DNA of 41,292 nucleotides from positions 1 to 41,292 of IMG/VR virus record IMGVR_UViG_2718217795_000002. One strand, 5' to 3'. The position numbers and the translations under genes are program-made. Below the pieces are notes generated by a model. That model saw nothing but the letters and a program-made list of their open reading frames with translations. It was not told the DNA's origin and made no database searches. Each line of letters begins with the position of its first letter. Position 1 is the stretch's first letter. The DNA comes from a virus. Taxonomy: Duplodnaviria; Heunggongvirae; Uroviricota; Caudoviricetes. Of this stretch, positions 5,591 through 34,565 are shown piece by piece.

Positions 5591-6470
5591 CCTCCAGTTT
5601 CGCTTTGCATTCTATGTAAATGGCTTGTACGTTCTGCTGCAATTTCATTCCAGATGTCAGGCGATATGCTTCTGCAAAATATCGCTTCAAATCATCCATG
5701 TTTTCTGCCTGAGCCATTTCATCACAAAGAAGTTGTGCTTTATCCATTATTTCCTGCTGGCGTTTCCGTTCATCTTCGCGGATATCTTCCTCTGATTTGT
5801 GCGGCATAACTGGTTCCTGATGCATACCTTCATCTTCGTTAAGCAGGTGAATGGCATTATCCAGTCGCTGGGCTTTAGGCCAGTATTTGCTGGCACGTTT
5901 AACTATTGTTTTACGCGCCATCTCTTCCCAGAATGTTTTCCACGGTCCATTCTTTGCCTTGCTCGTTGCTTCCACAGCTTTAATTTCTGCCAGACTCATT
6001 TCTTCAGTCAGGTAGTCACCATCTGCTGTTTTAACCGTGCAATAACCTCCAACAATAGAGCCTCGCTCACCAAATGCGTTGTATTTGTGGGTTGGTGCTG
6101 AATCAAGGCCATTTGATTCATAGGTGTCGTTTGAGTACACCAGTTTGCATTGCCCCCACTTAATTGATCCTGTCGATTGCGCAAGATGAAGTAATCCCAT
6201 GTAACTGATATCAAGGCACACCATGCCGTCGCGCGGAACCAGATAAGCAAGTTTGCTGGCCGGGTTTAAGGTGATGCCGATCGCCGCAACATTGATGATG
6301 GCGTTCTGTGCGCTGGTTGGATTTGCCAGTGCCGTTTTAGCCAGGTAATCATTTTTCTGGAAATACTGAATTGCAAACTGGCTTTCCTTAGCCCATGTCA
6401 CCGTCTGTTCAGTCAATGCTCCGCAGAATAACTGCTCTTGCTGTTTAACGAATTCAACGATATTGCTCAT
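5568..6470 (-). CDS. recT: RecT-family single-strand annealing recombinase, 300 aa
   Basis: Motifs such as GITLNP...AYLVPR and overall similarity to RecT; sits in the lambda bet position. Confidence 0.85.
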   Translation of the reverse strand: MSNIVEFVKQQEQLFCGALTEQTVTWAKESQFAIQYFQKNDYLAKTALANPTSAQNAIINVAAIGITLNPASKLAYLVPRDGMVCLDISYMGLLHLAQSTGSIKWGQCKLVYSNDTYESNGLDSAPTHKYNAFGERGSIVGGYCTVKTADGDYLTEEMSLAEIKAVEATSKAKNGPWKTFWEEMARKTIVKRASKYWPKAQRLDNAIHLLNEDEGMHQEPVMPHKSEEDIREDERKRQQEIMDKAQLLCDEMAQAENMDDLKRYFAEAYRLTSGMKLQQNVQAIYIECKAKLEVASEQTV

Positions 6471-6778
6471 GCTGCTTCTCCAAAAATGTGTCTGCGTTTG
6501 AATATTGCGAAGGCATATTCAGCCTTAACTCTTTCTGTTATTGCATCCCAGAACCATTCAGCGGCTTTTTCCTGATAGTTACAGTCATCATCTTCCAGCC
6601 AGTCGATAGCGTCCTTAGTGTGTTCATCTGGCTTATATGAGCGAAGCATTTCGCTTATTGGGTCGCAACGTTTGCAGAGGCGATCAACTTCACTGTTGAT
6701 TCGTTCGTAATCTTCATCAGTAAAACTTGCGATTATTTGCGATATTTCACGCTTATCATTCAGAGTCAGAATCATCAT
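6467..6778 (-). CDS. Hypothetical protein, 103 aa
   Basis: ORF whose stop overlaps the recT start; in the lambda gam position but no Gam similarity recognised. Confidence 0.55.
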   Translation of the reverse strand: MMILTLNDKREISQIIASFTDEDYERINSEVDRLCKRCDPISEMLRSYKPDEHTKDAIDWLEDDDCNYQEKAAEWFWDAITERVKAEYAFAIFKRRHIFGEAA

Positions 6779-6859
6779 CTTTCTCCTGTTCTTTGTGCTG
6801 ATTGAGCATTTTGTTCATCTGACGAATGAATTCTTCGTCTGACCAGTTATCTGTAAAAC

Positions 6860-7012
6860 TCATTTCCTGCGATACCACGGAATGTTGATCGCTGATTTCA
6901 TCGCTTTATTTGCTTCAAGCCACATTTTGGAATCACCAATAAATCTGGCTATTACTGCTTTGTTTTGTGCTGCACGAAGCATCTGGTGATTGATGGCTAT
7001 TTCATTGCGCAT
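6860..7012 (-). CDS. kil: Kil-like host cell-division inhibitor, 50 aa (below ORF-track cutoff)
   Basis: GGAGG SD 4 nt upstream of ATG; segment IARFIGDSKMWLEANKA resembles recalled lambda Kil (IATFIGDEKMFREA); located between cIII-like ORF and the recombination genes as in lambda. Confidence 0.4.
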   Translation of the reverse strand: MRNEIAINHQMLRAAQNKAVIARFIGDSKMWLEANKAMKSAINIPWYRRK

Positions 7013-7131
7013 AACGCCTCCAGTTGTTTCTTTGCTGCTCTGATTAATTGTTTAACTCGGCGTGATAATTCAGATTCGTGCGGGTAGAAAGCGGACATGA
7101 CGCCGCTACCCGCGAGCTGAAAGTGCATCAT
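6997..7131 (-). CDS. cIII: cIII-like FtsH inhibitor, 44 aa (below ORF-track cutoff)
   Basis: GGAG SD; pattern ..AG..V......ES.L..R...L.. resembles recalled lambda CIII; position leftward of N as in lambda. Confidence 0.4.
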   Translation of the reverse strand: MMHFQLAGSGVMSAFYPHESELSRRVKQLIRAAKKQLEALCAMK

Positions 7132-7214
7132 GGGTAACTCCTTATATTTGATTGCATAACGAAAACGCCTCGAGTGAAGCGTTATTGGTATGCGGTAAAG
7201 CCGCGCTCAGGCGG

Positions 7215-7463
7215 CTACTCTATTTCTTCTTCGAATGATTTTATTAGTCGGTCAATAACATCATCCGTTTCAATATCATTTCCGTCTGATTGCTTTAATA
7301 CATCTATTGATTCTGCAGCGGTGAATTCCATCGCTGTGAGAAACTCGACAATTGCACACTCAACGACATATCGTTCTTCATCTGTACGACATGAGATAAA
7401 AGAGCATTTAATTGCTGTTATTACTTTTTGTTTAAGCTCTGCAGGGTAATCAGTTTTTATCAT
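7215..7463 (-). CDS. Hypothetical acidic protein, 82 aa
   Basis: ORF immediately downstream of a terminator hairpin; occupies the lambda ea10 position. Confidence 0.55.
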   Translation of the reverse strand: MIKTDYPAELKQKVITAIKCSFISCRTDEERYVVECAIVEFLTAMEFTAAESIDVLKQSDGNDIETDDVIDRLIKSFEEEIE

Positions 7464-7476
7464 CGTTTACTCCGTC

Positions 7477-7505
7477 AAAAAAATTGCCCTCACATTAGAG
7501 GGCAA
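7477..7505 (-). terminator. Rho-independent terminator within the pL operon (8-bp stem ttgccctc/gagggcaa plus T7 run on minus strand)
   Basis: Perfect 8-bp inverted repeat with 6-nt loop followed by TTTTTTT on the transcribed strand. Confidence 0.65.
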
Positions 7506-7660
7506 AGAAGATTTCCAATAATCAGAACAAGTCGGCTCCTGTTTAGTTACGAGCGACATTGCTCCGTGTATTCACTCGTTGGAATGAATACACAGTGCTG
7601 TGTTTATTCTGTTATTTATGCCAAAAATAAAGGCCACTATCAGGCAGCTTTGTTGTTCTA

Positions 7661-7807
7661 TTAACCAAGTTCTCTGGCAATCATTGCCGTCGTTCGTATT
7701 GCCCACACCATTGATTCTTATCAATAGTCGTAGTCATACGGATAGTCCTGGTATTGTTCCATCACATCCTGCGGATGCTCTTCGAACTCTTCAAATTCTT
7801 CTTCCAT
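7661..7807 (-). pseudogene. ral: ral-like (restriction alleviation) reading frame interrupted by tandem in-frame stops (TGA TAA)
   Basis: 28-aa acidic ORF with GAGGTGA SD (7721-7807), then TGA TAA, then the same frame encodes ...MVWAIRTTAMIARELG*, matching the recalled C-terminus of lambda Ral. Confidence 0.4.
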
Positions 7808-7861
7808 ATCTCACCTCAAATAAGTGGTTTGCTGCGAAAGTAAATACGCTTAAGTTACCTG

Positions 7862-7999
7862 TTATTTATCCCACCAAGTTCCGTATCTATCTATCCAGTT
7901 ACACCAATCATCGACACTCCATTTTGTTGTGTCGCATTTTGGCAACTGGCATGAATATCTACCTTCTTTGTAAAGTCGGCGCTTGACTTTCTTGAGCAT
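7862..7999 (-). CDS. Small Cys/Trp-rich hypothetical protein, 45 aa (below ORF-track cutoff)
   Basis: ATG preceded by GAGGTGA SD; just downstream of N stop. Confidence 0.3.
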   Translation of the reverse strand: MLKKVKRRLYKEGRYSCQLPKCDTTKWSVDDWCNWIDRYGTWWDK

Positions 8000-8007
8000 G
8001 GCTCACC

Positions 8008-8340
8008 TCAATCGTAATAAGCTGGAATTGATTTTCCGCGTTGCTTCTGGCGGCCTGAGCAAGTCACACCTATTTCACTGCGTGGCTTGCTGTACCATGT
8101 GCGCTGATTCTTGCGCTCAATACGCTGCAGGTTGCTTTCAATCTGTTCGTGGTATTCAGCCAGCACCGTAAGGTCTATCGGATTCAGTGCGCTTTCTACT
8201 CGTGAATTCGGTTTGCGATTCAGCGAGAGAATAGGGCGGTTAACTGGTTTTGCGCTTACCCCAACCAACAGGGGATTTGCTGCTTTCCATTGAGCCTGTT
8301 TCTCTGCGCGACGTTCGCGGCGGCGTGTTTGTGCATCCAT
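8008..8340 (-). CDS. N: Antitermination protein N (lambda type), 110 aa
   Basis: N-terminal arginine-rich motif MDAQTRRRERRAEKQAQWKAAN identical to lambda N; track ORF trimmed to the ATG at 8340. Confidence 0.9.
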   Translation of the reverse strand: MDAQTRRRERRAEKQAQWKAANPLLVGVSAKPVNRPILSLNRKPNSRVESALNPIDLTVLAEYHEQIESNLQRIERKNQRTWYSKPRSEIGVTCSGRQKQRGKSIPAYYD

Positions 8341-8450
8341 CTGGATTCTCCTGTCAGTTAGCTTTGAGTAACGCGCCGTGATGCTTATCTCCACGGTTGC
8401 TGTCTTGCAGCTGCATTTCGCGCTACTCAAAGCTTTCTGCTTTGAATGCT

Positions 8451-8481
8451 GCCCTTCTTCAGGGCTTAATTTTTAAGAGCC
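8451..8481 (-). promoter_or_regulatory. nutL site: boxB (8451-8465, reads GCCCTGAAGAAGGGC on minus strand) and boxA-like GCTCTTAAA (8472-8480)
   Basis: Reverse complement matches recalled lambda nutL almost base for base; located between pL region and N. Confidence 0.8.
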
Positions 8482-8522
8482 TCACCTTCATGGTGGTCAG
8501 TGCGTCCTGCTGATGGCTAAAT

Positions 8523-8562
8523 AGTACGATTTGTACTTTATCGAGTCAATACAAAATGTTCT
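8523..8562. promoter_or_regulatory. Putative OL operators / pL region: perfect dyad agtac-N5-gtact (8523-8537) and a degenerate copy (8548-8562)
   Basis: Palindromes read by eye; related half-sites recur in the cI-cro intergenic region. Confidence 0.35.
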
Positions 8563-8612
8563 AAATATAGTTGGTTTTTTATAACGCTTTGTATTTAATG
8601 GGTTTATATTTT

Positions 8613-8642
8613 GGAAAAAGAAAACCCGACACTAAGGTCGGG
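8613..8642 (-). terminator. Putative rho-independent terminator downstream of cI (stem cccgac/gtcggg, T-rich tail on minus strand)
   Basis: 6-bp stem with 6-nt loop; A-rich run 8613-8624 on plus strand equals T-rich tail for the minus-strand transcript. Confidence 0.45.
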
Positions 8643-8674
8643 TTATTGTTGTGTGCTTTAGAGTGGTGAGGTTG

Positions 8675-9328
8675 TTAACTAAATGTCTCTTCAGGCCACT
8701 GGCTGGCGATAACTTTCCCTACAACGGAACAGCTATCATTGCATGGGATCATTGGATATTGCGGGTTTAGTGGTTGTAGGAACACCTGACCGCTATCCCT
8801 GATCAGTTTCTTGAAGGTAAACTCGTCACCACCAAGTCTGGCTATGCAGAAATCACCTGGCTCAACAGCCTGCTCAGGGTCAACGAGAATTAACATCCCG
8901 TCAGGAAAGCTTGGCTTGGATCCTGTTGGTGCGGTCATGGAATTACCTTCAACTTCAAGCCAGAACGCACAATCACTGGCTTTTTTGGTTGTGCTGACCC
9001 ATCTCTCCGCATCACCTTTGGTAAAGGTTCTAAGCTCAGGCGAGAACATCCCGGCCTGAACATGAGAAAAAACAGGGTACTCATATTGTTTTTTAACGGG
9101 GGCAGATGAGTATTCGCCAACAGGTGAAAATGTACCGTCGTGGTTGAATGAGACGTTATCAATACCAAGGTATTTAAACACCACACCAATCTCGTCAAGA
9201 GATGGATGACGAGATCCGCGCAACCAGTGACCAATTCCACCCTGCGTCATACCAAGCTCTTCAGCTAACTTCTCTTGAGTTATGCCGAGCTCTTTCATTC
9301 TGGATCTAGCCAGTTCATACCATTTCAT
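8675..9328 (-). CDS. cI: CI-type repressor, chimeric: non-lambda HTH N-terminal domain fused to a lambda-CI-like C-terminal S24 autocleavage/dimerisation domain
   Basis: C-terminal region from [14 protein letters not shown] to ...[12 protein letters not shown] is near-identical to recalled lambda CI; N-terminal HTH differs; start chosen at ATG 9328 (9 nt after the purine-rich AAGGG, which abuts the ATG at 9334). Confidence 0.9.
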
Positions 9329-9445
9329 TTTCATACCCTTATTATTACGCTCTGTACTAAAACCATCCATGCACAAGATGTATTTTTTGTTTGCATTCTA
9401 AAAGTACATATCGTATTATTGTTTCATGGTTACTATGGAGGGCAT
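9329..9445. promoter_or_regulatory. Divergent cI-cro control region (OR operators, pRM and pR)
   Basis: 117-bp intergenic region between divergent cI and cro with dyad-like elements (9344-9358, 9369-9396, 9403-9417). Confidence 0.5.
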
Positions 9446-9661
9446 ATGAGCAACCTACGAAAATATCGAGAGTCACTGAATATCTCTCAAACAACACTTG
9501 CTAAGGCAGTTGGATGCACACAGGGAGCTATCGGACATTGGGAATCTGGTCGTCGCTTCCCAGACCTTAAAACATGCCGTGCTCTTGTTGAGTGCCTAAA
9601 CAAGTTAGGCGCAAAAGTCAGTCTTGATGACGTGTTCCCGCCGGAACACAAAGCCGCTTAA
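9446..9661 (+). CDS. cro: Cro-like HTH repressor, 71 aa
   Basis: ATG with GGAGG SD; short HTH protein divergent from cI; track ORF 9275-9661 trimmed. Confidence 0.8.
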   Translation: MSNLRKYRESLNISQTTLAKAVGCTQGAIGHWESGRRFPDLKTCRALVECLNKLGAKVSLDDVFPPEHKAA

Positions 9662-9670
9662 GACATTCTA

Positions 9671-9701
9671 GCTCTTACACATCACAGCCCTGAAAAAGGG
9701 C
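9671..9701 (+). promoter_or_regulatory. nutR site: boxA GCTCTTACA (9671-9679) and boxB GCCCTGAAAAAGGGC (9687-9701)
   Basis: Matches recalled lambda nutR; located between cro and cII. Confidence 0.8.
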
Positions 9702-9777
9702 ATTACCAGAAACAAATCTCTATGGTTTTGCGTTTCTTTGCGAAGCCAACTCTATCTAATTATTAAGGAAATTATCT

Positions 9778-10059
9778 ATGGGTACTATTGCAACTAAAAG
9801 CAAGAAAGCGGCTCGCATCGAGTCAGCCTTGCTGAACAAACTGGCACTGATGGGGCAGAAGACATTCGCTCGAGCGATGGGGGTTCCTGAATATCAGGTA
9901 AGCCGATGGAAGAATGGTTTCTTCTCGCAGGTAAGCATGATGCTGGCTGTTCTGGAATACGGAATCGAAGACGATGAAATGGCTGAATTGACTAAGCGGC
10001 TTGCCGATTACCTGACAAAAGAAAAAGCCCCGAAGAACGGCGAATTCTTCGAGGCCTGA
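9778..10059 (+). CDS. cII: CII transcriptional activator, 93 aa
   Basis: RIESALLNKLA...SRWK...MLAVLEYG motif strongly resembles lambda CII. Confidence 0.85.
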   Translation: MGTIATKSKKAARIESALLNKLALMGQKTFARAMGVPEYQVSRWKNGFFSQVSMMLAVLEYGIEDDEMAELTKRLADYLTKEKAPKNGEFFEA

Positions 10060-33990: not shown

Positions 33991-34565
33991 CAAACGATGA
34001 TTACATCCGTCTGTTGTCGGCACTGTTGCCACCCGGTCCGGCGTGGTCAGCCAGAGATCCGGCGATTGCCGGTGCGGCACCGTCATTAACCCGCGTTCAT
34101 CAGCGTGCGGATGCCCTGATGCGGGAGCTGGATCCGCGCACCACCACTGAACTGATAAACCGCTGGGAGCGTCTGTGCGGTCTGCCGGATGAATGTATTC
34201 CCGCAGGGACACAGACCCTTCGCCAGCGTCAGCAACGGCTGGATGCGAAGGTTAATCTGGCGGGCGGCATCAATGAGGATTTTTACCTTGCACAGCTTGC
34301 TGCCATGGGCAGACCAGACGCCACTATCACGCGATACGATAAAAGCACGTTCACCTGCTCATCGGCCTGTACTGACGCGGTGAATGCGCCGGAATGGCGG
34401 TATTACTGGCAGGTCAACATGCCAGCCGCCACCAACACCACCTGGATGACATGTGGCGATCCCTGTGATTCCGCACTGCGTATCTGGGGCGACACCGTTG
34501 TCGAGTGCGTGCTTAACAAACTCTGCCCGTCGCATACCTACGTAATTTTTAAATATCCGGAGTAA
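33981..34565 (+). CDS. Tail protein (Mu gp48-like, DUF2313), 194 aa
   Basis: Position and family similarity. Confidence 0.75.

Follow-up and report, generated by a model that had tools for sequence, protein, structure and literature searches.

The minus-strand reading frame from 7807 to 7601 of the window (the whole 41,292-nucleotide stretch of viral DNA analyzed here) raises the question of what kind of gene it represents. It translates as MEEEFEEFEEHPQDVMEQYQDYPYDYDY, two stops, ESMVWAIRTTAMIARELG, two further stops, NNKAA and two more stops. The first segment is a strikingly acidic peptide of 28 amino acids, and the second resembles the end of the phage lambda protein Ral. An earlier note on this DNA regarded the frame as a single ral-like gene split by tandem stop codons, and offered either a decaying ral or a remodelled locus that now expresses only an acidic peptide. 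The locus is very probably explained in another way, as a lambdoid early-left operon carrying the orf28-ral module, with a ral gene that a deletion has destroyed.

Setting in the Early-Left Operon

The whole feature is located on the minus strand, within a lambdoid early-left (pL) operon whose members are all encoded on that strand. The order of genes around it is cI, N, a DUF5484 gene, orf28, the ral remnant, an 82-amino acid ORF, cIII and kil. The assignment to the pL operon follows from the antiterminator gene N at 8008–8340 (−), the translation of which starts MDAQTRRRERRAEKQ (MDAQTRRRERR...) and which occupies the same place in SfI and lambda. The genes for cIII and kil are found at 6997–7131 (−) and 6860–7012 (−), respectively, and a cI-type repressor is encoded at 8675–9376 (−). 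The carboxy-terminal half of this repressor (...QWPEETF) is presumably lambda cI-like. Its amino-terminal DNA-binding part appears unlike that of lambda cI, in which case the immunity region would be a hybrid.

The interval between N and orf28 differs from that of lambda. In lambda it contains sieB on the opposite strand, whereas in the window it holds a 45-amino acid DUF5484 gene similar to Sf6 gp36 (7862–7999 (−); Pfam PF17583, E = 2.6e-12; PHROG 1871), which is also annotated in SfI and Sf6. No sieB-like gene was found in this interval of the window.

Downstream of the feature, a consensus scan for terminators returned two hairpins, both of them pattern matches. The weaker, with its T-run, is positioned at 7633–7648 (−), directly 3′ of the old ral stop, in sequence that the alignment places in both lambda and SfI. 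The stronger, TTGCCCTC..GAGGGCAA followed by seven T residues, is found at 7484–7505 (−), between the ral remnant and the 82-amino acid gene (7215–7463 (−)). Upstream of this second hairpin there is a 9-bp inverted repeat, GTGTATTCA...TGAATACAC, at 7566–7593 (−). The module formed by the inverted repeat and the T7 hairpin is present in the Escherichia phage ECP1 (KY979108) and in several IMG/VR loci, and is not found in lambda. Searches of 6000–10,000 against Rfam yielded zero matches. Antisense ORFs at 7600–7986 (+) and 7428–7664 (+), as well as a 50-amino acid ORF at 7572–7724 (−), had no family match and were dismissed as spurious.

Identity of the Acidic ORF

The acidic ORF is a separate gene, long annotated in lambda as orf28 (lambdap47), and is no part of ral. 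In the window, the intact microgene spans 7721–7807 (−). Its protein is 100% identical to lambda NP_040623, and its 87 nucleotides of DNA are one synonymous base apart from those of lambda orf28. It also matches PHROG 16060 (“unknown function”) over 28 of 28 profile positions (E = 7.1e-19). The peptide contains eight glutamates, four aspartates and five tyrosines with neither lysine nor arginine, giving a net charge of about −12. The acidic residues are concentrated in an amino-terminal run, MEEEFEEFEE, in which about eight of the first ten residues are glutamate. The Shine–Dalgarno sequence GAGGTGA (7811–7817 (−)) is situated 3 nt 5′ of the ATG, and its position is kept in the alignment of lambda (AAGGTGA), SfI and ECP1. 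An acidic ORF with a strong Shine–Dalgarno sequence and a TGA TAA ending had been reported for this locus without mention of its strand, and this description is borne out.

The tandem stops consist of the orf28 TGA (7721–7723 (−)) and an adjoining in-frame TAA (7718–7720 (−)). Both are native to intact phages, with TTGATAA present in all four aligned sequences (the window, lambda, SfI and ECP1). The stops are thus conserved among relatives, as the ending of orf28. The same bases are ral codons 5–7 (ATT GAT AAA; GAT AAR) seen in the orf28 frame. In the lambda reference record, orf28 (34271–34357) is located directly upstream of ral (34087–34287), with a 17-nt overlap. In intact phages, the ral ATG falls within the last 17 nt of orf28, 14 nt before its stop (ATGACTACGACTATTGA) and in a different frame.

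The window retains each of the features examined for membership of the orf28 family: the profile match, an orf28-specific Shine–Dalgarno sequence, a place downstream of N and the overlap with the ral ATG. With lambda it shares the 28-amino acid sequence and the TGA TAA as well. It departs from lambda in the one synonymous base, in having the DUF5484 gene rather than sieB as upstream neighbor, and in the broken state of its partner ral.

The Deletion in ral

The lesion is a deletion. The window and ECP1 share a clean 103-bp gap relative to lambda and SfI (alignment A1, columns 156–258), which removes ral nt 36–138, corresponding to codons 12–45 of lambda Ral. The sequence at the left of the gap reads ...AATCAATGGTGTGG / ACAATTC... 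and that at the right ...GATAAATGG / GCAATACG..., where the slash denotes the edge. The end points of the deletion are imperfect 8-bp direct repeats, TGGACAAT and TGGGCAAT. The junction is placed at 7702–7705 (−), its exact point being ambiguous within the TGG common to both repeats.

A local, unmasked tblastn search of the whole window with lambda Ral returned significant similarity in two pieces and in different frames: residues 1–16 at 7737–7690 and residues 46–66 at 7705–7643. Residues 17–45 had no match, and the same query found no second copy of ral in the window. The 5′ remnant begins at the original ral ATG (7735–7737 (−)), inside the 3′ end of orf28, and forms a frameshifted ORF of 18 amino acids, MTTTIDKNQWCGQYERRQ and a stop (7681–7737 (−)). 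The same peptide is encoded in other deletion loci. By translation and tblastn, the 3′ remnant (7640–7705 (−)) comprises Ral residues 46–66 and the old stop, and is out of the ral frame.

The claim that the frame of the acidic ORF continues into the Ral carboxy terminus is correct to the letter, as WAIRTTAMIARELG exactly matches lambda Ral residues 46–59 (lambda Ral ends ...DKWAIRTTAMIARELGKQNNKAA). This is an arithmetic accident. The Ral carboxy terminus falls in the orf28 frame because the two genes are one frame apart and 103 equals 3 × 34 + 1. The TAA that follows ...ELG also occurs in the intact 59-amino acid Ral of SfI.

A single ral-like gene carrying two nonsense codons, possibly read through to fuse an acidic amino terminus to the Ral carboxy terminus, would fit the presence of both segments in one frame with TGA TAA and three codons between them. 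The acidic segment, however, has no similarity to Ral, and it is annotated in lambda as a gene of its own that closes with the same two stops. In six genera, the intact Ral protein begins at the internal ATG and is never extended by an acidic stretch. Readthrough of two different stop codons in a row would be very unlikely in any case. The alignment with lambda and SfI already refutes this explanation, and its probability is negligible. For the window, this corrects a misreading: there are two genes and a deletion in place of one gene with stops. What stands of the two earlier alternatives is that ral has decayed and that the acidic peptide can be expressed in the absence of Ral; the notion of one split gene does not.

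The extent of the loss can be judged against the Ral family. Lambda Ral itself matches Pfam PF11058 over positions 1–66 with 162 bits, and an uninterrupted ORF of approximately 59–67 amino acids is expected of a member. The ral frame of the window ends after 18 codons. Four cysteines (C11, C17, C20 and C26) are invariant in a 20-sequence alignment of Ral proteins (A2) from Escherichia, Salmonella, Citrobacter, Kluyvera, Cronobacter, Providencia, Proteus, Pantoea and Erwinia. Of these, C17, C20 and C26 are within the deleted 103 bp, leaving C11 as the only one still encoded. An AF2 model of Ral, of low confidence (pLDDT 60.6), has a small hairpin at residues 36–43 and a helix at residues 45–64. 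All parts of Ral other than the segment of the carboxy-terminal helix are gone or frameshifted in the window. The DNA for the conserved W-A-I-R-T-T-A-M-I-A-R-E-L stretch is kept at 7705–7664 (−), in a +1 frame relative to the ral ATG.

What remains in common with lambda Ral (PF11058, PHROG 1055) is the start with the first 11 codons, the last 21 codons and the position in the operon. The differences are the missing 103 bp, the broken frame, a product of 18 amino acids and the absence of three of the four invariant cysteines. From its sequence, the ral of the window is a dead gene, an ordinary prophage pseudogene that is predicted to be functionally outside the Ral family.

Distribution of the Deletion Allele

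The deletion is not private to the window. An exact 30-mer spanning the junction was found in six IMG/VR contigs. A junction-centered 45-mer was found in 43 of 5426 complete E. coli genomes, at chromosomal sites in every case; this was a megablast search with a 28-nt word, which intact ral cannot match. Among the same 5426 genomes, the intact lambda orf28-ral stretch was matched in 887, with at least 80% cover in 786. An unselected scan of IMG/VR for loci with the orf28/ral overlap gave 118 that were usable: 100 intact, 12 with this deletion, four with other lesions and two truncated at contig ends. The orf28 loci were gathered by DNA pattern scans. The 103-bp deletion is the commonest ral lesion in this set, accounting for 12 of the 16 defective loci.

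Among deposited phages, the 45-mer matches ECP1 alone. This phage shares the junction TGTGGGCAAT with the window and is 99.8% identical to it over 440 bp in one piece, including the downstream 82-amino acid gene. In a separate comparison, ECP1 (two records) was the sole carrier of the deletion out of 387 phage records matching a 651-bp region. Other carriers differ from the window in their flanking modules, in a lambda-type ...GKQNNKAA tail or in their junctions (TGTGGACAAT or TGTAGACAAT). The allele appears to be commoner in resident prophages (43/887 in E. coli, 12/118 in IMG/VR) than in isolated phages. Approximately 5–10% of E. coli prophage orf28-ral modules have exactly this 103-bp deletion.

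These counts also bear on whether the 103 bp are present in the true genome and were lost during sequencing or assembly. The identical junction recurs in a cultured phage, in 43 genomes that were finished independently and in several viral contigs from metagenomes. It occurs on varied flanking backgrounds, and the deletion exists in three junction variants. An artefact has next to no probability, and there is no sequencing error here whose correction would restore one ORF.

The allele is already known in the sense that public annotation by PGAP recognizes a Ral pseudogene, under the name “antirestriction Ral family protein” (E. coli chromosomal loci L010, L036, L037, L038 and L039), and orf28 has long been annotated. 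The labels that PGAP gives the deleted ral disagree with one another. Three are in use: a “frameshifted” pseudogene, “incomplete, missing N-terminus”, and a 23-amino acid CDS (WP_353654437.1). What is mildly new is the conservation of the orf28 microgene across genera, along with how often the 103-bp deletion occurs and the possibility that it has recurred.

The deletion would have arisen through slipped mispairing or short-homology recombination at the TGGACAAT/TGGGCAAT repeat. Three junction forms are found, TGTGGGCAAT (the window), TGTGGACAAT and TGTAGACAAT, the first two of which are the products expected from a crossover in one or the other half of the repeat, TGG or CAAT. The deletion is carried on many flanking backgrounds. 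It also occurs on a variant with a 6-nt-shorter amino-terminal sequence, MTIDTNQW (L086), for which an intact counterpart exists (L084). The junction variants and the MTIDTNQW background suggest that slippage has recurred. The same picture could come from one old deletion that was later altered by point mutation and short-homology recombination. No sign of a DNA secondary-structure hotspot was obtained, as the deleted segment folds no better than its shuffles (z = −0.64).

A Possible Short Ral-Like Peptide

The deletion leaves a second, accidental mini-ORF behind. It begins ATG GTG TGG, 9 nt after the orf28 TGA, and encodes the 16-amino acid peptide MVWAIRTTAMIARELG before a stop (7661–7711 (−)). 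In other deletion loci a 23-amino acid form, MVWAIRTTAMIARELGKQNNKAA, matches PHROG 1055 (“restriction alleviation ral”) at profile positions 46–66. Reinitiation at this ATG after TGA TAA could thus release a peptide of the carboxy-terminal helix, of 16 residues here and 23 elsewhere, with some residual activity. Such a product would account for the frequency of this one deletion, which is the commonest ral lesion in the IMG/VR scan. The ORF (ATG GTG TGG GCA...) does exist close to the stop codon. The peptide corresponds to the most conserved segment of Ral, W46–L58, within the modelled helix of residues 45–64, and the 23-amino acid product has been called as a CDS by PGAP on one occasion.

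Nonetheless, the ATG has no Shine–Dalgarno sequence in front of it, the hairpin is lost together with three of the four invariant cysteines, and the allele is found in one cultured phage only. The variation between loci also resembles decay rather than selection. In four deletion loci the third codon of the mini-ORF is TAG, and others carry A47T, A52T, A55V/S or L58P/F at near-invariant Ral positions. Changes in the core residues 48–58 affect 14 of 23 deletion loci and 14 of 118 intact loci, which are not independent samples. With that proviso on sampling, the pattern is suggestive of relaxed constraint on the ral remnant. A functional peptide from this ORF is highly improbable, and the remnant is better read as part of the pseudogene.

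Conservation of orf28

The fate of orf28 is different from that of ral. It is intact in 22 of the 23 deletion loci, the remaining one having a frameshift. Amino acid changes were seen in seven of the 23, compared with 12 of 118 intact loci, in small samples of loci that are not independent.

The gene is also conserved beyond Escherichia. In other genera, every locus retrieved through Ral rather than orf28 has an ORF upstream whose end covers the ral ATG, with an overlap of 11 or 17 nt. The encoded peptides are MEEDIEEFDEHPDDDMRQYQDYPYEYDY in Providencia, MEDDIEEFDEHPDDDMSQYQDYPYEHDY in Proteus, MDEEEFDEHPADDMSQYQDYPYEFDY in Pantoea, MEEFDQHPDDDMSQYQDYRYEY in Erwinia and, from a GTG start, EDEFDEHPDDDMSRYQDYPYDH in Kluyvera. 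When genome contigs were searched with the Ral profile, most matches were lambda contamination, and the Providencia and Kluyvera loci alone were useful. In the P22-like Ral loci of Salmonella (L156 and L157, about 760–815), the upstream ORF is cut to 13 codons, MNKYQEYPYGYDY, with the 17-nt overlap kept. The acidic amino-terminal half is therefore dispensable there, and the geometry of the overlap is maintained.

The pattern of substitution is that of a coding sequence. Across 12 divergent loci, a 16-codon block free of the ral overlap has three, four and 13 variable sites at codon positions 1, 2 and 3, respectively. The pooled pS is 0.89 and the pooled pN 0.10 (pN/pS 0.12), for a set in which some loci were collected with a DNA pattern whose YQDYPY codons are fixed, a bias from which the five Ral-retrieved loci are free. 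In the +1 frame of the block, most pairs contain stops. Judged by these substitutions, orf28 is a genuine protein-coding microgene under purifying selection and tied to ral. The conserved ending ...CAGGAYTATCCRTATG provides an SD-like AGGA 8 nt 5′ of the ral ATG. As this AGGA is supplied within the end of orf28, the carboxy-terminal YQDYPY is doubly constrained. Although labelled “hypothetical” everywhere, orf28 seems to be a selected microgene inseparable from ral and may offer a handle on the control of Ral expression.

Expression and Possible Function

In lambda, CRISPRi shows both ral and orf28 to be non-essential, and ral makes a difference only when the host has type I restriction (PMC10695390). 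The target of Ral is type IA modification (PMC12707154). A literature search found no paper on the function of orf28, and no expression data were found in the literature searched, which did not extend to the lambda ribosome-profiling study.

Upon derepression or induction of pL, an N-antiterminated transcript would be made and ribosomes would load at the strong Shine–Dalgarno sequence of orf28. Translation would end at TGA TAA, yielding the acidic peptide of 28 amino acids. In phages with an intact ral, the ribosome would cross the AGGA and ATG of ral and stop 14 nt beyond, which would favor initiation at ral through translational coupling. Ral would then accelerate de novo methylation by the type IA (EcoKI-family) HsdM enzymes (PMC12707154). 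In the window, the orf28 peptide and the 18-amino acid stub are the products that could be made, with no Ral. The unmodified progeny of this prophage should then be fully exposed to EcoKI-type restriction. Since ral is non-essential, the phage would otherwise be viable, and ECP1, with the same allele, forms plaques.

The most likely role for orf28 would be to serve the expression of ral or the action of Ral. A consensus RNA structure that would hide the ral start, and would make coupling obligatory, was weak and unsupported, with a covariation term of zero and compensatory changes in two of 24 pairs, so that the proposed coupling of orf28 and ral draws on the geometry of the overlap. In addition, a weak SD-like AGGA is found 8 nt before the ral start itself, and Ral may therefore not need the translation of orf28. 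The strong conservation of the orf28 amino acid sequence argues for more than a passive leader.

A more specific proposal can be made, in which orf28 is a conserved microprotein that regulates the Ral system or works as its partner. It builds on the ral start being overlapped in every case and on the strong purifying selection seen in six or more enterobacterial genera. Separately, the 103-bp deletion may be a recurrent hotspot event, with two or three junction variants on many backgrounds. Both ideas are speculative and rather unlikely. Acidic runs early in a protein can destabilize or pause ribosomes, as described for MgtL and for the EttA-dependent co-translation of aceB-aceA (PMC9718836, PMC11282234). 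With these leaders orf28 shares a short upstream ORF, an acidic amino-terminal run, a proline and an overlapped downstream start; the likeness is one of architecture, and orf28 is not homologous to them. By analogy, the acidic run could make translation of orf28 sensitive to ribosome destabilization or EttA. If this were true, the supply of ribosomes to ral, and hence the synthesis of Ral, would be gated on the Mg2+ or energy state of the host. Alternatively, as a partner microprotein, the orf28 peptide could act together with Ral on HsdM.

It could also be postulated that orf28 is an independent effector, such as an acidic mimic of DNA or protein that targets restriction enzymes or another host component, and that it is kept for a function of its own. 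The strong purifying selection on the peptide, its charge of about −12 with five tyrosines and its integrity in 22 of 23 deletion loci are consistent with this. Yet in every lineage examined orf28 has been seen only in overlap with ral and never alone, and Salmonella keeps only the 13 carboxy-terminal codons that overlap the ral ribosome binding site. It is also somewhat more changed where ral is deleted (the small, non-independent comparison given above, with its one frameshift), and it is non-essential in lambda (PMC10695390). An independent effector is accordingly improbable, and a role in the service of ral remains the preferred reading.

The 82-Amino Acid Gene and Database Labels

The ORF at 7215–7463 (−), which has an acidic tail, is named “antirestriction protein ral” in ECP1 and falls in PHROG 14587 (“anti-restriction protein”). 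It was considered as a replacement for Ral and rejected: it has no Pfam Ral match, its few homologues are confined to Escherichia and all labelled “hypothetical”, and it is unlinked to the deletion in other genomes. The “Ral/anti-restriction” label was probably mis-transferred from the adjoining ral remnant and then propagated. A further protein of related activity is Lar/RalR of the Rac prophage, a small product reported to relieve restriction by EcoKI and to enhance modification. It is not known to be related in sequence to lambda Ral, and it is not present at the window locus.

Lambda-type ral and orf28, with Ral 98–100% identical, were also met on low-coverage contigs, some of about 48.5 kb (L011–L026, L029, L031, L032 and L034). 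The assemblies concerned are labelled Pseudoxanthomonas, Nocardioides, Shewanella, Paenibacillus, Bradyrhizobium, Kitasatospora and others. The presence of these genes in such assemblies is almost certainly due to contamination of public genomes with lambda control DNA.
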